A DNA stretch of 17,442 bases from an uncultured bacterium (GCA_964549305.1 CAZJVM010000051.1:1-17442), one strand, 5' to 3'; shown: positions 1-16,657, counted from the stretch's first letter. Numbers and translations are program-made. Notes: generated from the sequence alone by a model not told the origin.

Positions 1-1
1 T

Positions 2-76
2 CGGGGCGTAGCGCAGTCTGGTTAGCGCACCTGCCTTGGGAGCAGGGGGCCGGAGGTTCAAATCCTCTCGCCCCGA
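2..76 (+). tRNA. tRNA-Pro (anticodon UGG), CCA not encoded
   Basis: Acceptor stem CGGGGCG (2-8) pairs with CGCCCCG (69-75), discriminator A76. The D-arm reads GCGCAGTCTGGTTAGCGC. Anticodon stem CCTGC (30-34)/GCAGG (42-46) encloses loop CT-TGG-GA, and the T-loop is GGTTCAAATCC. TTTT follows instead of CCA. Confidence 0.97.
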
Positions 77-222
77 TTTTCCTTTTTTTAATTGCCTTTT
101 ATTCGATATCTTCCGTGAAAAATCGGCTGAGATTTCACCTCACCCGGAGGAGTAAATTAAACTAACATTGAAAGATTCACTATTTTAACTTAGTTTCAAA
201 TAAAACCCGAAAGATGCTTTTT

Positions 223-3054: not shown

Positions 3055-3083
3055 CTTCCTGTCGTTTATCTCCATATACAAAG

Positions 3084-3107
3084 AAGACAGGCGTTTATGC
3101 CTGCCTT
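3084..3107 (-). terminator. Possible intrinsic terminator/attenuator hairpin between the PEP-CTERM and C25 genes
   Basis: The minus strand reads AAGGCAGGC-ATAAAC-GCCTGTCTT (9-bp stem with one G-U), followed by CTTTGT, an imperfect U-tract. Confidence 0.4.
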
Positions 3108-3203
3108 TACTTTTATTTATAAAAAATAAGAACCTAAATCAATAGACGATGATACAAAAGATAATCTTTCAAAAAAAATTACCGGAAATTGAATGCCGAA
3201 ATT

Positions 3204-3887
3204 TCAGGACTTCTTAAAATAGATAAGTCCGATAAGTCCCATACCAAGAAAAAGTGCCGTTGACGGCTCGGGGACAGGGATTGACGGATTAATCTTCAAC
3301 TCCCAGTTATCAATGCCCGCATCTACTGTGTAACCGGGTCCAAGCGTGCTGTTACCCCTATAAAATCCAAAAGAAATAATACTGCCGTTTTCTGAAAAAT
3401 CAGGATGATCATTTACATCAAAAATAGTGTAAAAATCCTGCGCCCCGAGAGAAAGAAGTGACTGATGAGTCCATACGGATTGATTTGATAAAAGTCCCCA
3501 CGTATAATAATACTTTCCATTCTGAAAAAGAGCAGGACTTGTTGCCTCTCCCTGTCCTTGTCCTTCAAGCATAATGGAATCTTCCGAGTAATCTATTGTT
3601 CCTATTGCACCGTCGGTTGAAGGGTCATAATCCGCACCGCTTCGTAGATAAAATCCTGCAATAAAAGAATGCGAATAAGGGTTTACAGTATTTATAATTC
3701 TTCTAAATTCACCGGGATTGCCTCCGGAAAGTGATTGTGATTCACTTATTGAACCGCCTGCATTAATCGTTTGAATTGTCAATGACCAGTCTGTATCATT
3801 GAATGTACCATCAGAAAAAACAAGAGCAGAAGCCGAACCTGTTATGCCAAATAATAATATAAAAATTACCAATATCCGATTTTTCAT
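3204..3887 (-). CDS. PEP-CTERM sorting domain-containing secreted protein
   Basis: Sec signal peptide MKNRILVIFILLFGITGSASA. The C-terminus VPEPSTALFLGMGLIGLIYFKKS has the PEP motif, a TM helix and a basic tail. The body is beta-rich and Gly/Ser/Asp-rich. Confidence 0.95.
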   Translation of the reverse strand: MKNRILVIFILLFGITGSASALVFSDGTFNDTDWSLTIQTINAGGSISESQSLSGGNPGEFRRIINTVNPYSHSFIAGFYLRSGADYDPSTDGAIGTIDYSEDSIMLEGQGQGEATSPALFQNGKYYYTWGLLSNQSVWTHQSLLSLGAQDFYTIFDVNDHPDFSENGSIISFGFYRGNSTLGPGYTVDAGIDNWELKINPSIPVPEPSTALFLGMGLIGLIYFKKS

Positions 3888-3988
3888 TTTATCTTACCTT
3901 ATAAAACGATGAATCAACTGCTTACTTTTACTAAGCAGACTAGTTGACTTTCCGGCAGAATCTTTATCCGGAAAAGCTTACTGAAAAA

Positions 3989-4144
3989 TTAACTACCCTG
4001 ATTAAAACACTGGGGAATCAGGCATTGGCTCTGATTGGGACCTGCGCCAAGGTCGTTCTTACATGTACCGAGTACTGCCTCTTCGGAAATGAGTTTTACT
4101 CGCTTAATTGCCGGTTTTTCATACTTTCTTTTTTCTTTTTTCAT
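3989..4144 (-). CDS. Putative RiPP precursor peptide, 51 aa (MKKEKRKYEKPAIKRVKLISEEAVLGTCKNDLGAGPNQSQCLIPQCFNQGS)
   Basis: Hand translation from ATG 4144 to TAA 3989; absent from the ORF track, whose shortest entry is 60 aa. RBS AAGGGG lies 7 nt upstream and the ORF is co-oriented with its neighbours. It has a YxxPxI leader motif and a core with Cys28, Cys41 and Cys46. Confidence 0.85.
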   Translation of the reverse strand: MKKEKRKYEKPAIKRVKLISEEAVLGTCKNDLGAGPNQSQCLIPQCFNQGS

Positions 4145-4192
4145 AATTTAACCCCTTAAAGCTAAAATACTTTATTGTACATCTTTTCCAAT

Positions 4193-6190
4193 TTACTTTT
4201 TTTTGCGTTTCTTTTTAAATAACTTTTTAGATATCTTAACCTTATCTGCATCGTGAATGGTACTGTTTCCTGAAGTGTCAACATCTTCAAGCTTATAGTA
4301 ATAAGTGTTTCCTGTTTTTACTTTTCTGTCGGGATATTTGTATTTTGCGCCTGAAACAGCATTCTTCTTTGCCTTTATAAATTTGCTTATCCTTATGAAC
4401 TCTCCATTTTCCGATTCGCTTCTCAATATATAAAAACCGAAATTATCGACCTCAGTTGCAGTCTTCCACTTAACAATAACTTTACTGCGTTTCTGTTTTA
4501 CTATAAATTTCGAAAGCTCGATATAAGTGGGGTCAGTCAAATTAAGACGTCCCGAACCGTAAATATTGTCTTTTCCTGTATTTCCCATATCGATGGCAGT
4601 TGCTTCGAGAAATGCCTGCACGAGGTCTGCCGTATATGAAGGGAACCGGTCAAAAACAAGTGCCGCCGCGCCTGCAACAGTAGGAGACGCGGCTGAAGTT
4701 CCAAACCAATGTCCGTATGTAAAGCTGTCAACATTATCGGTGCCCATTATATCCGGTTTTGTCCTCGGTACCGCGCCGCTCCAGTTTGTCGTAGGTCCCT
4801 GCGAGCTGAAGGACTCCTGAGGTCCCGTTGTCCACTTAGTGCTGTCAATTGCGCCTACGGTAAGAACTCCCGCGGCATCCGCGGGCTGCATTAAACTGCT
4901 CGAGAGAGTTCTGTGCTCCAGAGTCTGTCTGAAAGTAAAAAGCTTCATATCGCTGTTTCTCGTAGTGGCAAAATTATAGATTCCTATCTTGTAATTTCCT
5001 CCCGAAGTGGGAGTATAGCTCAATCCTTCAACAGGAGGTGTGCCCGGCGCGCCTCCCTGCCAGGCTTCCGATGATGCAACCTGAGTGGTGCCGTCGGAGG
5101 CAAAGAGGAAAAGGTCATAATCCTGGTCCGATGCGGGGTTGTTCGAGTCAGGACCCCAGTCATCCCAGCTTAAAAAGATGCTTGCAGTCTGTCCTCCGGA
5201 AATGAAAATATCATTCAGTTCGTCTATTGGAGAAGTCGTAAACTCATGCCAGCCGTCAGCGTCTGTGGATGTAAAAACTCCCTGATAATGTTTACCGCCT
5301 TCGTTTCCCGCGGCATTCACCCAAAGAACTCCGTTTGCGCGCGCGCCGTTCGCTATATCGCAAATTGGACCCGTGCCATTGTATGGGCCTGTGTTAACCC
5401 AGCCTACGGAATGGTTTATTACATTGACGCCATAAGTTATTACGGCATCGTTTACGGCATTTGCCAAATCTATTTCATCGGCGATTTTCAAAAGATAGAG
5501 TTGCGCGTCAGGAGCCATATCGTTTACAGACTCGGAAACGGCAGTTCCGTGGACTGTGCCGGTTTCAAGCCCTGCTCCCGTATAATCCTTAGTAACAACA
5601 CCTGCCGGCAGGTCTCCGTTTGTAATCGTCGCGGTGAGATTGTTAAACCCCAGGTCAATTACGGCAACTTTTGTCCCCGCGCCTGTATGGCTCGATGTAT
5701 GCCACACATCTGCGCCCGTCAAGGCGACTCCCTCGCTTGTTACAATCTCGTGCGGCGTAAACGGAAGCCGTATATTGAGCACCCCCGGCAATGCCACTGC
5801 AATTGCCGCAAGAGAGGAAACAGGGGCATAACCCCTTATTAAGTTGTTATACTTTTTGCCTACGGTTACTCCAAATGTCGCAAGCTGTGATGCAATCGAT
5901 GTGTTTGCGGAATCAGTTACAAATACAACTCTGGCATTCCCGTTGACAAAATCTATTCCGTTTTGCTGGGCAAAACCTTCCGCGGCAGACATACCACCTA
6001 TCTGCTTCTTATTAATCAGATTGTTTAACACGCCGGCTATTTTCGGATGACCTTTTTTTCCTGTAATGTCGTTTATATCATCACCGGCAAGTACAACGGG
6101 AAGCATTAAAAAAGATGTGATGAAAAAACAGAGAAAAAAAGTTGCGGCACAAACAAATATCTTTCTCGAAAAGGATTTTTCAGTTTTCAT
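4193..6190 (-). CDS. Secreted S8 (subtilisin-like) serine peptidase with C-terminal Ig-like domain and Lys-rich tail
   Basis: Catalytic Asp in VAVIDLGF, His in HGTAVSE, oxyanion Asn in NAAGNEG, Ser in FGTSAASPTVAGAAAL, plus KPDIMG and YGSGRL. Signal peptide ends ...PVVLA. The start is probably ATG 6190 with GGAG RBS; the ORF track uses GTG 6205. Confidence 0.95.
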   Translation of the reverse strand: MKTEKSFSRKIFVCAATFFLCFFITSFLMLPVVLAGDDINDITGKKGHPKIAGVLNNLINKKQIGGMSAAEGFAQQNGIDFVNGNARVVFVTDSANTSIASQLATFGVTVGKKYNNLIRGYAPVSSLAAIAVALPGVLNIRLPFTPHEIVTSEGVALTGADVWHTSSHTGAGTKVAVIDLGFNNLTATITNGDLPAGVVTKDYTGAGLETGTVHGTAVSESVNDMAPDAQLYLLKIADEIDLANAVNDAVITYGVNVINHSVGWVNTGPYNGTGPICDIANGARANGVLWVNAAGNEGGKHYQGVFTSTDADGWHEFTTSPIDELNDIFISGGQTASIFLSWDDWGPDSNNPASDQDYDLFLFASDGTTQVASSEAWQGGAPGTPPVEGLSYTPTSGGNYKIGIYNFATTRNSDMKLFTFRQTLEHRTLSSSLMQPADAAGVLTVGAIDSTKWTTGPQESFSSQGPTTNWSGAVPRTKPDIMGTDNVDSFTYGHWFGTSAASPTVAGAAALVFDRFPSYTADLVQAFLEATAIDMGNTGKDNIYGSGRLNLTDPTYIELSKFIVKQKRSKVIVKWKTATEVDNFGFYILRSESENGEFIRISKFIKAKKNAVSGAKYKYPDRKVKTGNTYYYKLEDVDTSGNSTIHDADKVKISKKLFKKKRKKK

Positions 6191-6305
6191 TTGAACTCCG
6201 TTCACTTTTCTAGTTAAGAATTAATTCACTCCATTCAATTTTTATAAATTCAACCCCAAAATGAATGAATGTAAAAATACATTTTCTTCCGCTTTACATT
6301 TTGTA

Positions 6306-6631: not shown

Positions 6632-7456
6632 TTAAACTTGAACTCCAAATGTACCTTTCAGTCCGAAAGCGGAAACAATTGACAGTACAAAAAAGACAAT
6701 AAGCCAGTGGATTTCAACACCCCAAAAAGTGAGTTTCATCTCGGGATAATCAACTCTGATTTCCAAAACTTTTGATTCGGAAGGAAACGGGCTTTCCGCG
6801 GGAGTGAGAAGCAACTGCTCTAAATTAACTTTGTCGCGTGTCGCCCCCACTCTGCCAAGCGTTTTACCTGCTGATAATATTTTCGTATATGCTGTGCCGT
6901 TAACATTGAAAGTCAATTCATAATTGCCGCTCTTCTCTACAAGCACTCTCCAGTCGATTTCATTTTCATCTTCGATTGTAAGAGTTGGGGCATCGAGTTT
7001 GACTCCCTGAGGCAGTTTCATTTCGATATTTGCATCAGCAACCGAAACTCCCTTGTCGAGTTTCAGGCATACAACTGCCTTTTCACCCTCGTTCAGGGGT
7101 CTGTAGGCGTATCTGCTGTCAAGCTGTACGAGAATGAAAATAACCGGAACAATCATTACAAGCATCGGGGTAACCGAATAGCGCATATAGGTAAGGTTCG
7201 TCCTCAATATCTTCTTCTGCGATTTAAGCATCTGCTGAAGATCATGATTGAAGAGACGTACCTCGAGAAGGTATCCCTTTATCTTTTCCTTCGCGCTCTT
7301 TATACCGTCCTGGTTGGATGTGTAGCGAAATATTATAAGCATAGCAACACCTGTTACGAGAGACACGACAGATATACCCCACGCAGGCGCCATATTCTTG
7401 AAAGGCGCAAAGATAAGGTCAAAAATTGTGTTCAAAATATTTACCAGTGAAATCAT
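6632..7456 (-). CDS. Membrane protein resembling the DUF106/EMC3/TMCO1 (Oxa1-superfamily) family, with an inserted soluble beta-domain
   Basis: Architecture: amphipathic N-helix (LNTIFDLIFAPF), TM1 (WGISVVSLVTGVAMLIIF), charged helical hairpin (NQDGIKSAKEKIK...QKKILRTNL), TM2 with PMLVMIVP, an insert of roughly 130 aa, and TM3 (HWLIVFFVLSIVSAFGL). Confidence 0.65.
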   Translation of the reverse strand: MISLVNILNTIFDLIFAPFKNMAPAWGISVVSLVTGVAMLIIFRYTSNQDGIKSAKEKIKGYLLEVRLFNHDLQQMLKSQKKILRTNLTYMRYSVTPMLVMIVPVIFILVQLDSRYAYRPLNEGEKAVVCLKLDKGVSVADANIEMKLPQGVKLDAPTLTIEDENEIDWRVLVEKSGNYELTFNVNGTAYTKILSAGKTLGRVGATRDKVNLEQLLLTPAESPFPSESKVLEIRVDYPEMKLTFWGVEIHWLIVFFVLSIVSAFGLKGTFGVQV

Positions 7457-7489: not shown

Positions 7490-7690
7490 TTAAGAAATAT
7501 ATCCCAAACCCTGAAGTTTTTTCTTTATATCTTCTTCCGAGTCAGAGTCAGACTCCTCAAGTTTTGCGATTTCCTTCTCAATTGTATGGGTAATAAATTC
7601 TTCCGCTGAAGAATAACCTGCAATATCCGCGTATTTTTTCACTTTTGCCAACAAATCCTTATCAAGCTTAATTTTCGATCCGCCAAACAT
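7490..7690 (-). CDS. Small RHH-like protein with C-terminal LxxLGY motif
   Basis: Strong RBS GGAGG. KIKLDKDLLAKVKKYADIAGYSSAEEFITHTIEKE fits a strand-helix-helix pattern. The tail is EEDIKKKLQGLGYIS. Confidence 0.8.
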   Translation of the reverse strand: MFGGSKIKLDKDLLAKVKKYADIAGYSSAEEFITHTIEKEIAKLEESDSDSEEDIKKKLQGLGYIS

Positions 7691-7715
7691 TTTTCATCCT
7701 CCCTGCGATAACAGG

Positions 7716-9695
7716 TTAAAAAATATTGCTTCCAACCATTTCTTTTTTCTTTTCAAATCCGAATTCCGCCAGAAGTGTAGGCGCAATGTCATAAAGAGCC
7801 GGATTTTCTTTCACAATTTTTTTATTGGAAAGGATAATACCCGGCACTTCTTCAGGTGCCATACAGTGGTCTCCGCTCCATTCTTCCATATTATTCGTAA
7901 CCAATTCCTTTGGAAACTTGCCGAGACTCGCTTCCCACGATATCCTGTATTCGCGTGCAAAGCCTAAAAGAATATCAGGAGCATCTTTAACATAAGGGCC
8001 TGAATAGATATCCTCTCTCCTGTAAACCTTTTTAAATACTTTTTTCCCCGTTTTTGCGTCAACAACATTTTCAAGTTTCTCAACAAGCTCATTAACAAGC
8101 TTATCACGCTCTGCGCCGGGTGATACTATGCCGTTTGCCTCTCTGCCGGCAAGGTTGATGTAAAGCCCGTTTAATCCGAGCACATAGGCCTTTGTCCTGC
8201 TCCAGTCTACATTTGCAAACAACTCTTCCTCTCCCTGTTTAGAAGGGTCGATAAGAGTTACATATCCGTTATTCAAAAGCCACGTGTTGATGTTATATGA
8301 ATAATAGAATGGAGCAAAACCGTGGTCGGACATTACGATAAGCGTTGTGTCATCATCAAGTCTTTCTAAAGTATAAGCAAGCACTTCATCCATCTCCTCA
8401 TAGACCTTCTCGAGGACATCGCCGTATTTGTCAAAGGATTCCTGATTGAAAGCGGGATGGTTTTTGTCGTGCTGGCGCCAAAACATATGGGCATTCTGGT
8501 CAGTGCTGGAAAAATAATAGAAAAGAACTCCGCTTTTAAATTGGGAAAGAAGATATCTGTATCCCCTCACTTCCTCTTCGTGGACAAGAGTAATCTGCTT
8601 GATGAATTCACCGTCATCAAATATTCCGCTTGTAAGCGCCTTGGTGTCTTCAGGCATTCCCTGCGTGTAGAAATATCCCACATTGTCGAAAAGCTCTTTT
8701 GAAAAATCGTCAGGCGTGGAAATAGGAAGCGCCGGGTCCTCGGGATTTATGTTTATCGGTGTTATATAAAGTTTAAAATCAGGATGAGCTTCCTTGAGAT
8801 AGATACGGCATATCCCTGAAACTCCCTGTATATAGGGAATAAGGTCAAAATCAATCCGAATCCATTTACTCCATTCACCTTCCTTTAGAAAAATCTCCTC
8901 ATCGGGAAGGACTATCTTCGCCACAGGATTTTCAGGATCTATATGGACAGTAAAATCAACTGTGCTGTCAGGCACGTCTTTTTTGAAAGTGTTTTTCGGA
9001 CCGTATATTTTTGCTTTGACTGTGTTTCTCTTGACATATACTTCGTAAAATTTTCCGCCTGATATTTCGCCGTTTTCCATTTCAGGTTCAACATTGGAAT
9101 AATATGAAAAAGTGCCGTATGTACCGAGCATATCAGGAGTTCCCATTCCGGAAAGTGTTTTGGCTTCGCTTTCAACAGGAGGAAAATTCGATGGAATCAT
9201 ATAGACTGTACAAGGAACGCCCTTTTTCTGAAGAATTTCCCAAAATGAATCTCCGTGCCTTAAAAGCTCGACCTTACCCGACTCAAGAGGAATTACCCAG
9301 TCGCCTATGGTAAAAGTCTTTCCTCCTCCCGTGGTGCGCGATGTGGAAAGATATGGAAAAAGAGTTTTAGGGTCACGATGGACAAAATCGAAAATGCCGT
9401 GTCCTCCGGGATTCATTCCCGTAATGAAATTCGACCACGCGACGGGAGACTGCGGGGGGTTTGATGTCTGCAAATTCTTGAATGTACCTTCCGATGCAAG
9501 CTTTACAAAAGTAGGCATTCTTCCCTCATCCATCATTTTACCGAGAATTTGAGGGTCCATGCCGTCAAATCCCAGTATGAGCACTTTTTTCTTTGTAGCA
9601 ACTGCCTGCTTATCTGAACAACCCGGAGTAAAAACAACAGATGTCATTAGCACGGCAAATACTAATAAGCTCAATATTTTTCCTGTCTTATTCAA
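7716..9695 (-). CDS. AlkP-superfamily (NPP/COG3379-like) protein #4, probable lipoprotein
   Basis: Motifs LGFDG, PPQSPVAW (putative Ser nucleophile), HGIFDF, TDQNAH, SDHG and WSGDH. The N-terminal hydrophobic signal ends in TPG-C26, an atypical lipobox. TTG start. Confidence 0.9.
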   Translation of the reverse strand: MNKTGKILSLLVFAVLMTSVVFTPGCSDKQAVATKKKVLILGFDGMDPQILGKMMDEGRMPTFVKLASEGTFKNLQTSNPPQSPVAWSNFITGMNPGGHGIFDFVHRDPKTLFPYLSTSRTTGGGKTFTIGDWVIPLESGKVELLRHGDSFWEILQKKGVPCTVYMIPSNFPPVESEAKTLSGMGTPDMLGTYGTFSYYSNVEPEMENGEISGGKFYEVYVKRNTVKAKIYGPKNTFKKDVPDSTVDFTVHIDPENPVAKIVLPDEEIFLKEGEWSKWIRIDFDLIPYIQGVSGICRIYLKEAHPDFKLYITPININPEDPALPISTPDDFSKELFDNVGYFYTQGMPEDTKALTSGIFDDGEFIKQITLVHEEEVRGYRYLLSQFKSGVLFYYFSSTDQNAHMFWRQHDKNHPAFNQESFDKYGDVLEKVYEEMDEVLAYTLERLDDDTTLIVMSDHGFAPFYYSYNINTWLLNNGYVTLIDPSKQGEEELFANVDWSRTKAYVLGLNGLYINLAGREANGIVSPGAERDKLVNELVEKLENVVDAKTGKKVFKKVYRREDIYSGPYVKDAPDILLGFAREYRISWEASLGKFPKELVTNNMEEWSGDHCMAPEEVPGIILSNKKIVKENPALYDIAPTLLAEFGFEKKKEMVGSNIF

Positions 9696-9719
9696 ACTTT
9701 GTCTGCCTCTTTTACAATT

Positions 9720-11855
9720 TTAAAAATTATTAATCAGCGGTTTGCCCTGCATATATGCCGGTATGTCTATTCCGTAAAGCTTAAGCACCGTAGGACCTAT
9801 GTCCATTATGGAAGGCGCTTCGGCGTCAACCTTTTTATTGCTGAAAAGAATTCCCGGCGCGCATCTCGGGTCAATGCAGTGGTCTCCGCTCCAACTCTTC
9901 GTGTTGTCCTCTATAACCTTGTCCGTGCATTTACCCACTGCCGCTTCCCACGATGTCCTGTAACCTACATTGAATCCGATGAAAAGGTCAGGTCCGTTTC
10001 CGGCATAAGGCCCGCTGAAAAGCTCCGCATTGTCAAAAAGTTTGTTAATCGCAATCTCATCACATTCTTCATCTTTAAAATGATCAAGTTTCTCTGACAA
10101 TTCTTTTTTGAGATTTTCATATTCTTCCCCCGGTTCCACAATCCCCTGTCCTTCTCTTCCCTTGAGGTTTATATACACTCCACCAAGGCCAAATGTGTAT
10201 GCCTTTGTCTTTGACCAGTCAACATCCTGAAACCATTCTCCGCCTGTTCCTGAATTCTTGAAATGCATATAGCCATTTTCATAAAACCATGTATTTAAAT
10301 TCACACATCTTCTGAAAGATTTAAACCCGTGGTCTGAGATTACCATCAATACATCCTTCTCACCCACCTTTTCAATTGTCTTTCCCACAAGTTCATCCAT
10401 CTTCCTGTACATATCTTCGATGGAGTTTTTGTGTTTCTCCGTATCCTTGTCCCTGTTTGCGGGATGTTTATCATCTATATAGCGGAAAAACATATGCTGT
10501 ATTCTGTCTGAGGTATCAAAAACGCAGGCAACCATTCCCTTTTGAGTCTTATCGATGGCATTGAAAAACATATCTTCTCTCTCTTCCTGATGCTTGTATG
10601 CCTGTCCCAGGAATGCCTCTTCGTCAATCACCCTTTCATTAAGCGCCCATGTATCCTCGGCAAGTCCCAGTGTCGCGTAACGTCCCTGCATCTTAGAAAG
10701 ATATACCGAATAGAAAAGCGGATGAGAGATAGGCATTGCCGGGTTATCGGGGTCGATATTTATCGGTGTTATGTAAAAATTAAATTCCGGTGAAACAGAC
10801 CTAAGAAGAAAACGGCATATGCCCTGCACCTTTATTCCGAGACCTGCACTGAATACAACGGGTGTCCATCCCGTATATTCGCCCTTTTTAAGCTTGATTG
10901 TTTCATCGGGAAGTTTCAGGGTTGCTTCATTGTCATTGATTATTTCAACAGTAAAAGGAATCCTCATTTCCCCGCCTTCCTTAAGGAGAGAATTTTCAGG
11001 ACCCTTGATATGACTCTTGACGATATTTCCGTTCTTTTCCACCAGAACGCGGACACCGCCTGTATGCTTGCCCACTGAATTCTTGTCGGTTGTGTAGAAG
11101 GTAAAGGACCCCTGCGTTCCCTTCAGGTCAGGCACGCACATTCCGGAAATAGAAACGCCGTTGAATTTCTCCGGCGGAAAGGTAATGGGCACCCGAAGCG
11201 CCGAGCTGAATAAATGGTTATCTCCCAATATTTTCCAGAATGGCTGGCTTTTCCTTAAAAGCGTAATCTCCGGTTTTCCTATGGGAACGTTGTATTTCCC
11301 GAGCTTAATAGTCCTTTTCGCGTTACCAATGTGTACAGAAGAAATATCGGGCAGATATGTCCTTACATCCCTTTTTAAAAAATCAAAAATATTATGCCTT
11401 GACGGGTCAACTCCCGTAATGAAAGATGACCAGGCAACGGGCGACATTGCCGGATATGTTGTTCTCAGAGGCGAAAATGAACCTTCTTCTTTCAACTTTG
11501 AAAAATTGGGGAGTTTCCCCTCGTTCATATATTTTGTGGCAAGAGCGGGGTCAAGTCCGTCAAGTCCCAGCACAATCACTTTCTCCGTATCTGTTTTTAC
11601 TCCGCTTCTTTTCTTTATGAATGTCCTTATGATAAACCTCACAGGCCAGGCAAGAATAGAAAGGAACGCGAGAAGAAAAGTTACGAAGAGGACGAAAAAG
11701 CTTGAAATAAAAGCAAATCCCGCACCGGGTCCTATATAGGCATCTGCATTTGACGCAAATGAAAAAATTAGAATGCCGAACACAGCAACTCTGAAAAAGG
11801 AGTCCGAAGCAAATCTATATTTCAAACTTTTTTTAATCTGCAAAATTATTTTCAC
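9720..11855 (-). CDS. AlkP-superfamily (NPP/COG3379-like) protein #3, membrane-anchored
   Basis: Motifs LGLDG, PAMSPVAW, HNIFDF, SDRIQH, SDHG and WSGDH. The N-terminus is signal-like, ends in ADA, and is followed by YIGPGAG, a TM helix and a basic stretch. GTG start is uncertain. Confidence 0.9.
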   Translation of the reverse strand: MKIILQIKKSLKYRFASDSFFRVAVFGILIFSFASNADAYIGPGAGFAFISSFFVLFVTFLLAFLSILAWPVRFIIRTFIKKRSGVKTDTEKVIVLGLDGLDPALATKYMNEGKLPNFSKLKEEGSFSPLRTTYPAMSPVAWSSFITGVDPSRHNIFDFLKRDVRTYLPDISSVHIGNAKRTIKLGKYNVPIGKPEITLLRKSQPFWKILGDNHLFSSALRVPITFPPEKFNGVSISGMCVPDLKGTQGSFTFYTTDKNSVGKHTGGVRVLVEKNGNIVKSHIKGPENSLLKEGGEMRIPFTVEIINDNEATLKLPDETIKLKKGEYTGWTPVVFSAGLGIKVQGICRFLLRSVSPEFNFYITPINIDPDNPAMPISHPLFYSVYLSKMQGRYATLGLAEDTWALNERVIDEEAFLGQAYKHQEEREDMFFNAIDKTQKGMVACVFDTSDRIQHMFFRYIDDKHPANRDKDTEKHKNSIEDMYRKMDELVGKTIEKVGEKDVLMVISDHGFKSFRRCVNLNTWFYENGYMHFKNSGTGGEWFQDVDWSKTKAYTFGLGGVYINLKGREGQGIVEPGEEYENLKKELSEKLDHFKDEECDEIAINKLFDNAELFSGPYAGNGPDLFIGFNVGYRTSWEAAVGKCTDKVIEDNTKSWSGDHCIDPRCAPGILFSNKKVDAEAPSIMDIGPTVLKLYGIDIPAYMQGKPLINNF

Positions 11856-11861
11856 TAACCG

Positions 11862-13169
11862 TTAATATGTTTTTAAAATAATATCGGAAACATCGGTGAT
11901 ATGCATATCGTCCTTCTCTTTGCCGAATGACCAGAAAAAAGCGTCATCCCAGGTATGCATTCCGCATAAAACGGTACGGCCGAAAAGCTCCTTCTTCTTG
12001 ACCGACCCCTTGAGGTCAAATCCCCGATTGGAAAGAACTACCATATCAGGAGCATTGTCAAAACAGGAACCGCTGTAAATATCCTCTTTAAAAAAAACCT
12101 TATCTACAACCTTCTTGCCGTTATATTCCAAAGTCTCCAGTTTTCCCTTTATCTGTGAGCGAATCGCATCGCCTTCACCCTTGTCAACGGTACCGCGAGG
12201 GTATTTATCTCTGTAGTTAATGTAAATTCTGCCGGGGTCAAGAATAAATGCCTTCGTATCATCGGAAATATCCGCGACCGTATCAGGTGAATCTTTTTTA
12301 TAACTTATGATGCCTTCCTTTTCAAGGAAATTGTTCAGATAAACCTCCTGCTCTATTCCCGTGAATCCGTGGTCTGAAAGGAGTATGAACTGATTTCCGC
12401 TTTCACCGTCTCCCGCAATATCGAGAAACCGTCCGTACACATCTTTAACAAAGCTGTCAACAGCATTATAGTAATCGAGGAATGCCTGATGATATTTATG
12501 ATTAGTATCCACAAGCGCATCCCACAAAAAATGCTGAAGGCGGTCGGTACTTGTCACTATAAGCTCGAAATAATCCCAGTCCTGAGTTTTCCAGAAAAGG
12601 TCAAGTGCCTTTTTTCTTCCCTCGAGCGTGGAGTAAAGTTCCTTAATAAGAAAATCGTGGTCTTCACGCGCTTTCATTGTATCCACATCTATTTTGTATC
12701 CCAGTCCTTCAAGCTGTGAAATTACGGCAAGGGGATAAACTGCTTTCTTGATGTTAATCGCGACAAAACCCGAAACCATAACTCCGTTCATCGGTCTTGC
12801 GGGATATGTTGACGGCTGATTTACCACAACACTTCTTTTGCCGTCTGCTTTGAGCTTATCCCATATTGTGGGCGCCTTCAGGTCGGAATACTGCGGAAAA
12901 ACCATATCATAAGTGCCGGGATTTAAATCCATAAAGCCGAAAATGCCATGCTCCGCGGGATTTACTCCCGTCATAAAAGAGGACCAGCTTACCGATGAAA
13001 TCTCGGGAAGCGTCACCTTCATCTGCTGAAGATTCCCCTCACCTCTAAGCTTTGACATAAAGGGCATAACCCCTTCATCGGCAAATTGTTGAATGAGTGA
13101 GTAAGGCGAACCGTCAAGCCCTATTACGCAGCACCTTTTCTTCTTCTTTTTCTTAAAAAAGAAAGCCAA
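11862..13169 (-). CDS. AlkP-superfamily (NPP/COG3379-like) protein #2, no signal peptide
   Basis: Motifs IGLDG, PEISSVSW, HGIFGF, TDRLQH, SDHG and GMH. TTG start with GGGAGG RBS. Confidence 0.9.
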   Translation of the reverse strand: MAFFFKKKKKKRCCVIGLDGSPYSLIQQFADEGVMPFMSKLRGEGNLQQMKVTLPEISSVSWSSFMTGVNPAEHGIFGFMDLNPGTYDMVFPQYSDLKAPTIWDKLKADGKRSVVVNQPSTYPARPMNGVMVSGFVAINIKKAVYPLAVISQLEGLGYKIDVDTMKAREDHDFLIKELYSTLEGRKKALDLFWKTQDWDYFELIVTSTDRLQHFLWDALVDTNHKYHQAFLDYYNAVDSFVKDVYGRFLDIAGDGESGNQFILLSDHGFTGIEQEVYLNNFLEKEGIISYKKDSPDTVADISDDTKAFILDPGRIYINYRDKYPRGTVDKGEGDAIRSQIKGKLETLEYNGKKVVDKVFFKEDIYSGSCFDNAPDMVVLSNRGFDLKGSVKKKELFGRTVLCGMHTWDDAFFWSFGKEKDDMHITDVSDIILKTY

Positions 13170-13185
13170 CGAAAAATCCTCCCTT

Positions 13186-13785
13186 TTAAATGTAACCGAG
13201 GTCTTTTAGTCTCTGCTTTACTTCATCTTCCTCGTCGTCTGAATACTCCGATTCCCCTGTTTCAGGAATGAGCTTCATTAATTCGAGAGTCCTGATAATT
13301 TTCTTAACGCTTTCTTCTTCTGATTCCTTTGAAGTGTCAACTACAACTTCGGCATTTTCCGGCTCTTCATAGGGGTCATCGACACCGGTGAAGTTTTTTA
13401 TTTCGCCTTTAATCGCTTTCGCATAAAGCCCTTTCACATCTCTTTCGGTCAATGTTTCAAGAGGGCATTTGCAGTAAATTTCAACATAGTCCTTGATCAT
13501 CTGGCGGTTTTCGTCTCTTACTGCCGTGTAGGGAGAAATTGCCGCGGCAATCGCAACGACGCCGTTTCTTGTGAGAAGGTTGCACACAAAACCGATGCGC
13601 CGGATGTTGATGTCCCTGTCTTCCTTTGAAAATCCAAGTCCCTTGCTGAGGTTTGTCCTTACGATATCGGCATCTAATACTTCAACCTTCGCTCCCCTCT
13701 CAAGGAGAATAGCTTCAACTTCTCTTGCAAGCGTGGTTTTTCCCGAACCCGAAAGCCCCGTAAACCAAAGTGTAAATCCTTTCAT
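13186..13785 (-). CDS. cysC: Adenylyl-sulfate (APS) kinase with C-terminal LxxLGY extension
   Basis: WFTGLSGSGKTT P-loop, LGFSKEDRDINIRRIG, ISPY and RDVKGLYAKA...FTGVDDPYEEP. Confidence 0.97.
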   Translation of the reverse strand: MKGFTLWFTGLSGSGKTTLAREVEAILLERGAKVEVLDADIVRTNLSKGLGFSKEDRDINIRRIGFVCNLLTRNGVVAIAAAISPYTAVRDENRQMIKDYVEIYCKCPLETLTERDVKGLYAKAIKGEIKNFTGVDDPYEEPENAEVVVDTSKESEEESVKKIIRTLELMKLIPETGESEYSDDEEDEVKQRLKDLGYI

Positions 13786-13814
13786 TATTTTTCCTCCGAT
13801 TTTTCAGATTTTTT

Positions 13815-15191
13815 TTAAATAATTGGCTTGCCTATCATATTTTCAGGGATATCTATCCCATAAAATTTCAAAATGGAAGGTGCAATGTCATAAATCGAAA
13901 CATCCCTTTCCTTTTCAGTCCATTCCCTGCCCGGTATTTTCCACACGAAAATTCCTTCCTGCGCGTGGTTTGCGTCATCGGGACCCGTGTCGTTTTCATA
14001 GATGTGAATACAGCCCGTGCCAACTGAGCCCGCCGAGCGCCAGTCAAGGTTTCCCGGATAAAGAATCAGGTCGGGCGCTATGTTGTTGCATTCTTTATAA
14101 ACATCCTCAGGCCTGAAAACACGGTTATTAATCGACTTACCGTTTTCATCAGTCATCGCTTCAAGTTTTGCAATAAGCTGAGTCCTGAAAGATTCATATT
14201 CCTCGGAAGGAATAACTCCCTGCGGTTCGCGTCCCTTTACATTGAAGAATATTCTCGAATAGTAACCGCCTTCACCCCAGCAGCTTGTCTTCTCCCAGTC
14301 AATCATATCCATTTTAAGCTTCGTCTGTTTTGCGGGCTTTTCCTTGAGAGTGAGAAACCCTTCCCGCTGAAACCACTCATTGATGCAGATAGCGCCGTGC
14401 ATTGTCTTTGCGCCGTGGTCGGAAACGAGAATAACCGATGTATCTTCGCCTATTACTTTCAGCGTTTCGCCTATTTCCCTGTCAATTTCTTTGTAATAAT
14501 CCTTTATGGCGTTTTCATACTTGTTTCCCGGCTCGTAAAGACGGTGTTCCTTGTCAAAGTATCTCCAGAATCCGTGATGAATCCTGTCGATTCCCATCTC
14601 GACCATCATGGCAAAATCAAAATCCTTTTGCACAAAATGCCTGAATGCCTTGAAACGGCTTTCCGTCATTTCATATATTGCCTTTAAAAGTTTATCCTTG
14701 TCGTCAGTTCTGAAATCATCGACATCTATTATGTAATTGCCGCCTGCCGCGCTGTCCACTTCCGCCTTTACCTCATCGGGCCACGTATATTGGGCATCCT
14801 TGTTGGGAGTGAGGAAGCTTGCCACAAGCATACCGTTGAGGGGCTTGGGAGGGTAAGTCTGAGGCACTCCGAAAACAAGCGAACTCATACGGTTTCTTGA
14901 AAGATAATTCCAAAGTGTCTTTGCCTTGACATAATTCGCGTTTGCAAAATAGAGGTCATCGTATCCGTAGGACTTTCTGTTTCTGAAACCGTAAAACCCC
15001 AGCATTCCCGGATCCTGCGATGTCATCATTGCAGTCCAGGCGGGCACTGTAATGGGCGGAATTGTGGAAACCATCTTTCCGTGCATTCCTTCGTCCACAA
15101 TCGACTTGATATTGGGAAGCTCATCGAGCCAGTCGCCGAAAACCAACTGAGGCGTTGCACAGTCAAGGCCAATAATAACTAATTTTGCCAT
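13815..15191 (-). CDS. AlkP-superfamily (NPP/COG3379-like) protein #1, cytoplasmic
   Basis: Motifs IGLDCA, STIPPITVPAW (putative Thr nucleophile), LGFYGFRNR, IDRIHH, SDHG and DTGPDDANH. No signal peptide; GAGG RBS. Confidence 0.9.
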   Translation of the reverse strand: MAKLVIIGLDCATPQLVFGDWLDELPNIKSIVDEGMHGKMVSTIPPITVPAWTAMMTSQDPGMLGFYGFRNRKSYGYDDLYFANANYVKAKTLWNYLSRNRMSSLVFGVPQTYPPKPLNGMLVASFLTPNKDAQYTWPDEVKAEVDSAAGGNYIIDVDDFRTDDKDKLLKAIYEMTESRFKAFRHFVQKDFDFAMMVEMGIDRIHHGFWRYFDKEHRLYEPGNKYENAIKDYYKEIDREIGETLKVIGEDTSVILVSDHGAKTMHGAICINEWFQREGFLTLKEKPAKQTKLKMDMIDWEKTSCWGEGGYYSRIFFNVKGREPQGVIPSEEYESFRTQLIAKLEAMTDENGKSINNRVFRPEDVYKECNNIAPDLILYPGNLDWRSAGSVGTGCIHIYENDTGPDDANHAQEGIFVWKIPGREWTEKERDVSIYDIAPSILKFYGIDIPENMIGKPII

Positions 15192-15209
15192 AATTAACCT
15201 CTCTCCCTA

Positions 15210-16352
15210 TTAAGAATTTTTCATACTTTTAACAAGAACTTCTGCAACCTCAGGTCTTGTAAATTCTGCCGGCGGTTTTTCTCCTGCTCTTAACATTTCT
15301 CTCACCTTTGTGCCACTCAAGAAAACGTGGTCTTCATTGGAATGAGGGCAGGTTTTCGTGGATGCCATGTTGCCGCACTTTGTGCAGAAAAAGGCATGTT
15401 CAAAGAAGAGAGGCGTAATGTCAATCTCCTCAGGGCTGAAATCATTGAAAATCAGCTGAGCGTCATAAGTGCCGTAGTAGTTGCCTACGCCTGCGTGGTC
15501 ACGACCGACTATAAAATGCGTGCATCCGTAATTTTTCCTCACAATGGCGTGAAATATCGCCTCGGAAGGTCCTGCATAGCGCATTGCCGCGGGAAATACC
15601 GAAATTGCCACCCTGTCATCGGGATAATAGTTTTTGAGCAGGGTTTCGTAACATTCCCAGCGCACTTCTCCGGAAATATCATCACCTTTCGTTGCACCCA
15701 TAAGAGGATGAATGAGCAGGGCATCAACTATTTCCAGAGCGCATTTCTGAAGATATTCGTGAGCCCTGTGAATTGGATTTCTTGTCTGAAATGCCGTTAT
15801 AGTCTTCCATCCTTTTTCCTCGAAAAGCTTTCTCGTCTGCGCGGGCTCGAGGCGAAATTCGTGAAAATCAGCGTGATTCGGCTTTTCAAGCAAGGTTATC
15901 TTTCCGCCTATATATGAGTCGCCGATTGAATCGAGATAGGCAACACCGGGATGCGCCTTATCGGTTGTCCTTAAAACGGCCTGCGCCTCCTTCTCCTTGT
16001 CAAAAGAAAACTTGTCCTCAACTTCCATTATGGCAAGGGGTTTTCCGTTTTCGCAAAGAGCAACTTCCGTGCCGGTTTGTATATCGTCTCCGTCCTTTGC
16101 CGAAAGCACCACGGGGATTGTCCAAACAGGCCCCGTTGACAGATGCCTGTCACTGATTATGGAATTGTAATCCTTTGATGTCATAAAGCCTTCAAGAGGG
16201 CTCAATGCGCCTGTGGCAATCATTTCGAGGTCGCTTGTTTCCCTTTCGTTAAGGGCAATCTTTTTCAGTCCCTGCGCCTTCTCTTTCAAATTGTCCACAT
16301 TGCTGTTATCGGCAACCCTGTTAATCAGCGTGCCGCCATGAGGTTTAATCAT
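15210..16352 (-). CDS. sat: Sulfate adenylyltransferase (ATP sulfurylase, Sat type)
   Basis: PHGGTL, SPLEGFM, AFQTRNPIHRAHE, MRYAGP, RKNYGCTHFIVGRDHAGVG, Zn-site CTKC...CPH and SGTKVR. Confidence 0.98.
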   Translation of the reverse strand: MIKPHGGTLINRVADNSNVDNLKEKAQGLKKIALNERETSDLEMIATGALSPLEGFMTSKDYNSIISDRHLSTGPVWTIPVVLSAKDGDDIQTGTEVALCENGKPLAIMEVEDKFSFDKEKEAQAVLRTTDKAHPGVAYLDSIGDSYIGGKITLLEKPNHADFHEFRLEPAQTRKLFEEKGWKTITAFQTRNPIHRAHEYLQKCALEIVDALLIHPLMGATKGDDISGEVRWECYETLLKNYYPDDRVAISVFPAAMRYAGPSEAIFHAIVRKNYGCTHFIVGRDHAGVGNYYGTYDAQLIFNDFSPEEIDITPLFFEHAFFCTKCGNMASTKTCPHSNEDHVFLSGTKVREMLRAGEKPPAEFTRPEVAEVLVKSMKNS

Positions 16353-16380
16353 TCTATCTTCTCCCAGGTTTAAAAATGGT

Positions 16381-16593
16381 TTATAGGTAACCGAGATTTT
16401 TAAGTTTTCTCTTTATCTTTTTCAACTCGTCAGGTTGAAGCGCGTCATCTTCGGTGCTTATTCCGGCATCGCTGACCATATCCCTGAGGACATAAACGAT
16501 GAAATCTGTTGGGGAATTAAAACCGGAGTCCGCAATCAACTGCCGAATTTTGCTATAAAGCACGCGCGGAATTTTAATAGTAACTTTATCCAT
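16381..16593 (-). CDS. CopG/ribbon-helix-helix family protein with C-terminal LxxLGY motif
   Basis: VTIKIPRVLYSKIRQLIADSGFNSPTDFIVYVLRD is an RHH pattern, and the tail is ELKKIKRKLKNLGYL. The start is probably ATG 16593; the ORF track uses GTG 16605. Confidence 0.85.
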   Translation of the reverse strand: MDKVTIKIPRVLYSKIRQLIADSGFNSPTDFIVYVLRDMVSDAGISTEDDALQPDELKKIKRKLKNLGYL

Positions 16594-16602
16594 AAAAATA
16601 TA

Positions 16603-16640
16603 CACTCTTATAGGAGTTTTATAGCACTCTTATAAGAGTG
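16603..16640. promoter_or_regulatory. Tandem palindromic operator (2 x 16 bp, 22-bp period)
   Basis: A perfect palindrome CACTCTTATAAGAGTG at 16625-16640 and a 14/16 copy CACTCTTATAGGAGTT at 16603-16618. Confidence 0.75.
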
Positions 16641-16657
16641 TAAAAGGCATTTGTCAA
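16629..16657 (-). promoter_or_regulatory. Sigma70-type promoter of the sat/cysC/AlkP operon
   Basis: -35 TTGACA (16657-16652), 17-nt spacer, -10 TATAAG (16634-16629). Confidence 0.7.

Follow-up and report, generated by a model that had tools for sequence, protein, structure and literature searches.

A C-terminal LGY tail shared by CysC and two ribbon-helix-helix-like proteins, and its possible docking on enzymes of the alkaline-phosphatase superfamily

Described C-terminal tails and the tail of this operon

Several described systems use a short C-terminal peptide as a binding address. The hydrophobic-Tyr-X (HbYX) tails of proteasome activators are short C-terminal motifs with an essential Tyr on unrelated proteins, which are inserted in a pocket of one receptor family and act in gating. 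Here we describe a tail of similar design in a 17,442-nucleotide stretch of DNA from an uncultured bacterium (GCA_964549305.1, CAZJVM010000051.1:1-17442; hereafter the window, with positions counted from its first letter). The tail ends three proteins of a minus-strand operon, the adenosine 5'-phosphosulfate (APS) kinase CysC and two small ribbon-helix-helix (RHH)-like proteins, RHH1 and RHH2, and it is missing from four enzymes of alkaline-phosphatase fold, AlkP1 to AlkP4, encoded in the same operon. In HbYX tails the Tyr is strictly penultimate and the carboxylate is read; here, in contrast, a Gly stands before the Tyr, 1-4 residues follow it and the motif may be internal, and the predicted receptor is an AlkP-fold enzyme rather than the proteasome. 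Encapsulin and microcompartment cargo peptides and the EEVD tails read by tetratricopeptide repeat (TPR) proteins are likewise portable terminal peptides on a flexible linker with a common binding address. The present operon differs from those systems in that its conserved neighbours include no genes for a shell, a TPR receptor or a compartment, and in that tail-bearing proteins are found on either side of the membrane. Closer to the present case in design are pseudosubstrate or autoinhibitory tails and small inhibitory or regulatory subunits of hydrolases, since here too a tail is predicted in a catalytic cleft, in cis in some members and in trans in a dedicated small protein.

The proteins that carry the tail also have described counterparts. 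The RHH core aligns weakly with the N-terminal RHH domain of NikR, and RHH1 comes first in the operon behind phased operators, as might be expected of a repressor like NikR, Mnt or CopG. Unlike in those repressors, the C-terminal part is a 12-residue tail common to enzymes and not a ligand-binding domain, and RHH2 is about 80% identical across phyla, with a helix-B surface predicted to lie on an enzyme. As in fused 3'-phosphoadenosine 5'-phosphosulfate (PAPS) synthases, two activities of the PAPS pathway are coupled, and related loci encode Sat-CysC fusions of 572-676 aa; in this operon, by contrast, CysC is a protein of its own, and the presence of its tail correlates with that of AlkP1/AlkP2 rather than with Sat. 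We know of no such tail or small-subunit partner in the alkaline-phosphatase superfamily, and the portions of the literature that could be consulted contain no description of the motif, the module or regulation of the superfamily by a tail in the cleft. The proposed portable AlkP docking tail on an uncharacterised, widely conserved module appears to be new.

We put the probability at roughly one half (about 0.5) that the tail is a portable docking peptide for catalytic domains of the AlkP superfamily, with RHH2 sitting on AlkP3, CysC held to AlkP1/2 and RHH1 coupling transcription to an enzyme. If docking is true, the superfamily would have an address tag that is short and simple to spot, present in cis on thousands of uncharacterised 'sulfatase-like' enzymes and in trans on small adaptors, an APS kinase and a transcription factor. 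The tail peptide and its Y/G mutants would give a direct handle on the uncharacterised set AlkP3-AlkP4-RHH2-Mem274, a bacterial operon regulator would be wired to the occupancy of an enzyme cleft, and proteins of 64-72 aa now called 'hypothetical' or 'CopG' (2,642 and 1,387 homologues of RHH2 and RHH1) could be annotated by rule as enzyme partners.

The tail motif and its carriers

The ORF (open reading frame) listing of the window gives the operon order RHH1, Sat, AlkP1, CysC, AlkP2, AlkP3, AlkP4, RHH2, Mem274, all on the minus strand. The original prediction had described a common tail after an acidic linker on CysC, RHH1 and RHH2, and the translations are exactly as described. RHH1 (16381-16593; 70 aa from an ATG at 16593, with an alternative start at 16605) is an RHH-like regulator in which an acidic stretch leads to the C-terminus ...KIKRKLKNLGYL (...KLKNLGYL), the tail codons lying at about 16384-16419. 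RHH2 (7490-7690, 66 aa), as delineated from homologues and complex prediction, consists of an RHH-like core, an acidic linker and a tail of residues 55-66 (about 7493-7528), and ends ...IKKKLQGLGYIS (...KLQGLGYIS). CysC (13186-13785) ends ...VKQRLKDLGYI, again behind an acidic stretch. It is recognised as an APS kinase by PF01583 (E 1.1e-60) and by PRK00889 (261.7 bits against a cut-off of 244, covering residues 2-172), and the P-loop GLSGSGKT is present. Since the APS-kinase profiles stop at about residue 172 of 199, the last 27 residues, the acidic linker plus tail (about 13189-13269), are an extension. All four AlkP proteins match PF01663 above the 23-bit cut-off (E 5.4e-44, 6.7e-38, 7.7e-30 and 3.2e-36 for AlkP1 to AlkP4), and their termini, MIGKPII, IILKTY, MQGKPLINNF and MVGSNIF, are without the motif, so the absence claimed for them was also found.

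The motif L[KRQ]xLGY[ILMV] was sought in the 4,019 ORFs of at least 100 aa (1,085,268 residues) of the 2.94-Mb genome. There are 17 copies, 16 of which lie at most 2 residues from the C-terminus, against a composition-based expectation of 0.75 copies anywhere and 0.008 at C-termini. When ORFs of at least 40 aa are taken, 19 of 16,984 terminate in the motif and a single copy is internal. The concentration of the motif at C-termini is far above chance. The tail has a hydrophobic stripe at i, i+4 and i+7 flanked by Lys/Arg, L-G-Y is invariant, and the RHH2 linker has a median net charge of -7. The number of residues after the Tyr is 2 in 120/120 RHH2 homologues, 1 or 2 in RHH1 and 1-4 in the sulfatase-like proteins.

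Sixteen carriers lie outside the window, 14 with PF00884 Sulfatase and SGSH_C domains, one with PF01663 and one with DUF2061; all have N-terminal transmembrane (TM) segments, signal peptides or lipoboxes. The 15 enzymes among them agree with the statement in the original prediction that sulfatase/AlkP-family proteins can carry it in cis. For one cis-tail sulfatase-like protein, the strict motif is terminal in 90 of the 120 best homologues, and GY stands in the last 6 residues in 110. The cis-tail PF00884 proteins lack the C/S-x-P-x-R nucleophile motif of formylglycine-dependent sulfatases, with an invariant Thr at this place (T79, W-T-x-P-S) in 22 aligned sequences; judged by this signature, the tail-bearing 'sulfatase' paralogues are probably not sulfatases, but transferases or hydrolases of unspecified substrate. 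Fifteen tail-bearing paralogues with Thr replacing the formylglycine Cys/Ser are found at G000:C1:85650-100476 and 10 further places (L002-L016), and 5 of them are clustered in a polysaccharide-like locus, as judged from the ORF list alone. The DUF2061 carrier, a 100-aa membrane protein (G000:C1:75741-76043, L001) with an acidic linker and the ending ...KLKELGYIDD, is the sole non-enzyme tail carrier of the genome outside the window.

Both RHH proteins belong to large families. RHH2 has 2,642 homologues, the best 120 of which are about 64 aa long, 74-94% identical and from Acidobacteriota, Gemmatimonadota, Schekmanbacteria and others; RHH1 has 1,387, one of which, at 90% identity, carries the label Candidatus Schekmanbacteria. 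For each protein, 120/120 of the best homologues retain the tail, and 133 of the 150 best representatives of a joint RHH1/RHH2 profile are GY-terminal. RHH1 and RHH2 are homologous over their full length, with G25, S28, F32, I33, L59, L62, G63 and Y64 invariant in both. RHH1, RHH2 and Mem274 have no match in Pfam or NCBIfam (for RHH1 and RHH2, none at E<=0.01), some sources label homologues of the two RHH proteins CopG/Arc/MetJ, and the RHH2 profile matches the NikR RHH domain weakly (E 0.075). A match of this profile to ribosomal uL13 (4v91_O, ...LAALGYMS, E 0.03) was judged a chance likeness. In three proteins, P0395, P0500 and P0507, the RHH-like unit is doubled or a further N-terminal domain is present. 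An acidic linker and ...RL[RK]xLGYL[D] come after every RHH unit, so that the combination of RHH and tail is in use outside this operon too.

Small lipoproteins of about 160 aa (156-251 aa as called), weakly TPR-like, likewise have an LGY tail. Nine loci of one of the two operon types described below, type B (L166, L177, L179, L181, L182, L189, L194, L202, L207), encode such a protein divergently upstream of RHH1, and 3 Planctomycetota loci (L060, L084, L095) encode one upstream of AlkP3. Large sulfatase-like lipoproteins with the tail adjoin AlkP3-AlkP4-RHH2-Mem274 in 10 loci. Both kinds are candidate partners of the presumably periplasmic AlkP4, for which the small ones might be what RHH2 is for AlkP3.

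The AlkP3-RHH2 pair and the CysC tail

AlkP3-AlkP4-RHH2-Mem274 is a four-gene module conserved across several phyla. We fetched 80 genomic loci with RHH2, from Acidobacteriota, Gemmatimonadota, Planctomycetota, Krumholzibacteriota and others, and counted those with enough sequence. Mem274 is directly downstream of RHH2 in 75/76, an AlkP gene is directly upstream in 74/75, and a second AlkP gene stands further upstream in 65/66. None of the AlkP3/4 orthologues in the 80 loci is GY-terminal. Genomes of Acidobacteriota, Gemmatimonadota, Planctomycetota and several candidate phyla encode the module, and its association with PAPS synthesis and with a sulfotransferase recurs; in about 30 loci a Sulfotransfer_3 gene lies divergently upstream of AlkP3, and a homologue of it was not found in the present 100%-complete metagenome-assembled genome (MAG). 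Two proteins that look like AlkP4-RHH2 fusions (P0404, P0384) were set aside, as their junctions look like frameshifted or over-extended gene calls on high-GC contigs.

Among 151 sampled Acidobacteriota genomes, RHH2 (E<=1e-10) is present in 37 and AlkP3, counted when full-length with its N-terminal hairpin, in 44, three of these being split. All 37 RHH2-positive genomes have AlkP3. The 7 remaining AlkP3 genomes encode a divergent RHH2 (3e-10 to 3e-7) directly beside AlkP4, which brings co-occurrence to 44/44, and the other 107 genomes have no RHH2 match at 1e-10. These counts include the unpublished genome G057, which has both genes, and the sample also holds G032 and G154; without them, the figures are 43/43, with 36 RHH2-positive genomes among 148. 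In the small phylum of the window, represented by 5 genomes, the AlkP3/AlkP4 pair is found in the 4 genomes that are at least 97% complete, and the fifth (70%) has only a fragment at a contig end. For this pair, a tail-less AlkP goes with a tail-bearing partner across the sampled genomes, the kind of co-occurrence that the original prediction proposed to look for. Distant AlkP3/4-like paralogues with signal peptides are different: 18 of 18 from RHH2-negative genomes terminate right after the fold and are partner-free. The proposed anti-correlation between cis and trans tails is not supported by these proteins (a cis tail in 0/18), and the presumably periplasmic AlkP4 has no cis tail either.

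AlkP3 (9720-11855) is assigned from profile, alignment and complex prediction as a PF01663 enzyme with an N-terminal membrane hairpin and as the predicted receptor of RHH2. Its orthologues begin with a signal-peptide-like segment, an invariant A-Y-[IV]-G-P-G-A-G, a second hydrophobic segment and an Arg/Lys cluster (window 11620-11855), an arrangement that would place the catalytic domain in the cytoplasm. The hairpin itself is very conserved. AlkP4 (7716-9695), an AlkP3 paralogue with 38.7% identity to it, has a lipoprotein-type signal peptide and no tail, and since its orthologues carry signal peptides or lipoboxes it is likely periplasmic. In 38 AlkP3 orthologues D99, P139, D450, H454, D508, H509, D658 and H659 are invariant and S138 is nearly so; we presume from the nucleotide pyrophosphatase/phosphodiesterase (NPP)/AlkP pattern that the motif residues are metal ligands and nucleophile. 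Opposite S138 in the alignment stand the Thr of the PSFT motif in phosphonoacetate hydrolase and the Cys of a sulfatase. A single-sequence search of the PDB with AlkP3 gave no match at E<=0.001, and a profile search gave partial matches only, at the N- and C-terminal motifs.

We predicted the complex of AlkP3 (residues 72-711), Mem274 and RHH2, each entered as an alignment, in three runs with three controls. The interface score between RHH2 and AlkP3 (interaction prediction score from aligned errors, ipSAE) was 0.63 in 3/3 runs, with at least 92% of contacts common to the runs and a partner predicted local distance difference test (pLDDT) value of 76. The controls scored 0.01 and 0.00 with two unrelated partners and 0.00 with a substitute for AlkP3. 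In calibration, the mark set for this score was reached by 58/80 solved complexes and 2/110 mismatched pairs. No similar solved complex was found, so a structure already familiar to the predictor does not account for the result. RHH2 with its whole tail is thus predicted to sit on the catalytic-cleft side of AlkP3. Every confident contact of RHH2 falls on AlkP3. The RHH2 side comprises residues 22, 24-28, 31-32, 35, 47, 49-50, 52 and the whole tail 55-66. The AlkP3 side includes H454, which belongs to the invariant D450-x3-H454 motif, R153, the neighbour of H154, W655 and C660, which flank D658-H659, and in a large insert residues 242-250 and 398-406; S138, D99, D508, H509 and H659 are not among the confident contacts. 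Sequence comparisons agree with the model. The 12 AlkP3 residues that touch the RHH core are AlkP3-specific, being the same as the AlkP4 consensus in 17% of cases, versus 43% for the rest of the protein. Conservation within AlkP3 is highest at the remaining 32 interface residues (0.90 versus 0.72), and 59% of these are common to AlkP4, as would suit a catalytic cleft. Of the non-Met columns invariant between RHH1 and RHH2, 7/8 fall in the predicted interface. Since the model leaves the N-terminal strand and the first helix of RHH2 unoccupied, an RHH dimer could bridge two AlkP3 molecules. No confident contact between RHH2 and Mem274 was reported in the three-chain prediction, which is not evidence against such a contact.

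For CysC, the evidence is a correlation. AlkP1 (13815-15191) and AlkP2 (11862-13169), both identified from profile and ORF as PF01663 proteins without the tail, have no signal peptide or lipobox and are thus presumably cytosolic. We sorted 80 metagenome loci fetched with RHH1 into two operon types. Type A, to which the window belongs, reads RHH1-Sat-AlkP1-CysC-AlkP2-AlkP3-AlkP4, and AlkP1 occurs in this type only. Type B reads RHH1-Sat-[305-aa cytosolic PF00884 protein]-CysC-AlkP3-AlkP4-RHH2-Mem274; here a PF00884 protein of 305-323 aa with W-T-A-P-S-H and no tail stands in place of AlkP1/AlkP2 (L177:2377-3294, L190, L181, L166, L150). Complete CysC proteins have the acidic linker and LGY tail in 15/15 loci with AlkP1/2 and the tail in 0/20 loci without them. 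Sixteen of these 20 end at the canonical C-terminus, 3 are decayed, with L[DNK]F[IV] for LGY[IL], and 1, on a 3-kb contig, has RGYL. The Phe for Tyr in the 3 tails probably marks decaying copies, and such decay, exact to the G-Y, in a lineage that lost AlkP1/2 is what a dedicated contact with these enzymes would predict. The CysC tail is present too in six genomic loci with separate CysC and AlkP2. A tree of 34 CysC cores, from which rows that were incomplete or lacked the P-loop anchor pattern were left out, shows the tail and AlkP1/2 traits perfectly congruent, with 3 changes on the best tree and 1 on well-supported branches. The canonical last CysC helix of this clade is already tail-like (...LELMGYIPP..., L072, L081, L026), and fused Sat-CysC proteins terminate ...LEKLGYIGA (L029, L038, L041, L045, L069). 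The CysC tail may have arisen by duplication of the canonical last helix, or the likeness may be a common helix-capping pattern.

Under the docking reading, a mostly acidic and flexible linker would lead to a short amphipathic helix, [IV]-K-x-[KR]-L-x-x-L, with Gly-Tyr-[ILV] as its cap, and this tail would bind the substrate-cleft side of AlkP-superfamily catalytic domains. Exported sulfatase-like enzymes would carry it in cis, and in the window it would be supplied in trans to tail-less cytoplasmic AlkP enzymes. AlkP3, anchored in the membrane and facing the cytoplasm, would have in RHH2 a small subunit dedicated to it. The second helix of RHH2 and its invariant A-G-Y-S-S loop would be set on an AlkP3-specific patch, and its tail along the conserved cleft. 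There the tail would gate or plug AlkP3, or the RHH dimer would pair two enzymes. The tail of CysC would tether the APS kinase to cytosolic AlkP1/AlkP2 as its presumed partner, and RHH1 would autoregulate the operon while its tail couples it, by partner switching, to one AlkP enzyme as the probable partner.

Several points weigh against docking. The calibration of the complex score holds only roughly for custom alignments and a three-chain job; the prediction concerns one pair from one predictor, and residue-to-residue pairing of the tail is not assignable in it. The cleft is conserved for catalysis anyway, so that conservation lends weak support where the tail is concerned. In an AlphaFold2 model of a cis-tail enzyme the tail helix (436-455) has a pLDDT of about 75 and the preceding linker about 53, and this model neither shows nor excludes docking. 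The proposal that the tail completes the AlkP active site runs against the 18/18 tail-less paralogues from RHH2-negative genomes. The correlation between the CysC tail and AlkP1/2 amounts to one to three evolutionary events, not 35 observations, and an independent-pairs test had no power, with 1 supported pair in 34 rows. AlkP1 and AlkP2 are without most of the insert of about 200 residues that supplies much of the AlkP3 interface; the AlkP3 result is therefore not transferable to the CysC tail by homology, and a tail site on AlkP1/2, if there is any, must by their sequences differ in detail from that of AlkP3. The tandem RHH-plus-tail proteins P0395, P0500 and P0507 suggest that the tail may serve other partners as well. 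In silico, the RHH2-AlkP3 prediction (0.63 against a best control of 0.01), the co-occurrence and the CysC-tail correlation speak for tail-AlkP docking as originally proposed; completion of the active site, which was part of that proposal, is not supported, and of the multimer predictions of tails with AlkP enzymes that it called for, the one covered here, RHH2 with AlkP3, was favourable.

RHH1 operators and alternative roles of the tail

The promoter and operator of the operon, read from the sequence, occupy 16603-16657 on the minus strand. A TTGACA box (16657-16652) is separated by a 17-nt spacer from TATAAG (16634-16629). Over the -10 box extends a 16-bp palindrome without mismatch (16640-16625), of which there is a near-copy 22 bp downstream (16618-16603), and the half-site T[TAC][GA]GAGT is present in 4 copies. 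One exact half-site 8-mer recurs in 46/76 upstream regions of related loci. The frequency of the degenerate half-site ahead of RHH1 in 73 related loci is 1.85 per 150 nt, versus 0.02 in control segments, and at least 2 half-sites are found in 40/73 RHH1 upstream regions versus 0/58 controls, with spacings that peak at 11, 7, 18 and 22 nt. Tandem or palindromic half-site arrays phased at 11 and 22 bp are found in this way across many uncultured lineages (window 16603-16657; L132-L211 upstream of RHH1). RHH1 is present in both operon types and is always first. From this arrangement, RHH1 is very probably a DNA-binding autoregulator of the operon. The tail of RHH1, and the G-[FY]-[NS]-S...F-I surface that RHH1 and RHH2 have in common, suggest that DNA and an AlkP enzyme may be competitors for RHH1. 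The original prediction's view that the RHH proteins sense the enzymes is plausible given the conserved operators.

These operators bear on an alternative in which the tail is a self-association helix, gathering RHH dimers into oligomers on the phased sites and CysC or sulfatase-like subunits with one another, with no AlkP receptor. The Mnt repressor oligomerises through a C-terminal helix. Since the RHH1 operators stand in tandem, with a phasing of 11 and 22 bp, binding to them should be cooperative; a helix on a flexible linker is predicted for the tail, and self-association would explain carriers on both sides of the membrane. We nevertheless regard it as unlikely, as the RHH2 tail is confidently predicted on AlkP3 with a score that falls to 0.00 when AlkP3 is replaced, the tail helix is only about 10-12 residues long, and in loci that lack AlkP1/2 CysC has no tail or a decayed one, though a need for CysC oligomerisation would persist there. 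Less probable again is that the tail is read by a common third party outside the AlkP superfamily. This could be a receptor of the TPR or PDZ type, a chaperone, or a tail-specific protease for which the tail would be a C-terminal degron. Its C-terminal position behind a flexible linker on unrelated families would suit such a reader, and the small periplasmic tail donors are weakly TPR-like. Carriers in the cytoplasm (CysC, RHH1/2) and outside (the sulfatase-like proteins) are, however, beyond the reach of one receptor, the 1-4 residues after the Tyr and the internal copy argue against recognition of a free carboxylate, and no candidate receptor is conserved in the 80 + 80 loci.

A further reading takes the tail as an amphipathic membrane-targeting helix that brings soluble proteins to the membrane with AlkP3, AlkP4 and Mem274. 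MinD and FtsA have C-terminal membrane-targeting sequences, which are typically loose in sequence. The hydrophobic stripe flanked by Lys/Arg would fit, and lipid binding would work on either membrane face; yet L-G-Y does not vary between families or phyla, the narrow hydrophobic face comes after an acidic linker, most carriers are already anchored by TM segments or lipid, and a specific docking on AlkP3 is predicted. We consider this improbable. The invariant Tyr might instead be used chemically, the tail being a substrate or a swinging carrier that is sulfated, phosphorylated or nucleotidylated in an AlkP site or by the sulfotransferase that accompanies the module in other genomes and then passes the group on, which could coexist with docking. 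The invariance of the Tyr in the tails, the predicted place of the tail in the catalytic cleft, where it touches a metal-motif residue, the PAPS made by the operon and the Sulfotransfer_3 gene upstream of AlkP3 in about 30 loci are compatible with this. The lack of confident contacts to S138, D99, D508, H509 and H659, the Phe for Tyr in 3 CysC tails (probably decaying copies), the missing sulfotransferase homologue in this complete MAG and the basic rather than acidic residues next to the Tyr make it the most remote of the readings. A wider scheme, which we hold to be very improbable though less so than Tyr chemistry by itself, would present the tail Tyr to the AlkP metal centre as a pseudosubstrate gate or as a covalent acceptor/carrier (sulfo- or phospho-Tyr). 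RHH2, CysC, RHH1 and the lipoproteins would then be exchangeable 'cartridges' loading, blocking or reporting a PAPS-fed AlkP relay (AlkP1/2, then AlkP3, Mem274, AlkP4) across the inner membrane, with transcription coupled via RHH1.

Mem274 (6632-7456), which follows RHH2, is a 274-aa membrane protein with a predicted Oxa1/TMCO1-like helical core and an Ig (immunoglobulin)-like insert. Its AlphaFold2 model (pLDDT 92.6) has four long helices and a C-terminal TM segment, with the beta-sandwich insert at about residues 120-250. The best VIA-align match is 7tut chain 8 (Z 11.6, root-mean-square deviation (rmsd) 3.6, 136 aligned), and YidC (3wo7_A) gives Z 8.1 (rmsd 7.2, 150 aligned); for helical proteins, Z values below about 13, as both are, may mean a common arrangement only. 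We take chain 8 of 7tut, a multipass-translocon entry, to be TMCO1. Foldseek matched the Ig-like insert only, and an Atlas search gave a weak lead to PF01956 (score 0.85, 17% of members). In bacteria, it would be unusual to find a TMCO1/EMC3-like insertase whose gene adjoins that of an enzyme anchored by an N-out hairpin.

The remaining operon gene, Sat (15210-16352), encodes an ATP sulfurylase (PF01747, E 4.5e-101, and PUA_2). A reading of the operon as a defence system was dropped, as PADLOC had no match for any of 7 operon proteins. At the contig start lies a tRNA-Pro(TGG) (window 1-77). Beyond Mem274, the minus strand holds within 223-6205 a 952-aa ORF, a PEP-CTERM-type protein (3204-3887) and a 670-aa ORF, the C-terminal domain of which is found again on contigs C132 and C8. 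Between the PEP-CTERM-type protein and the 670-aa ORF is a 51-aa Cys-containing ORF (3989-4144).

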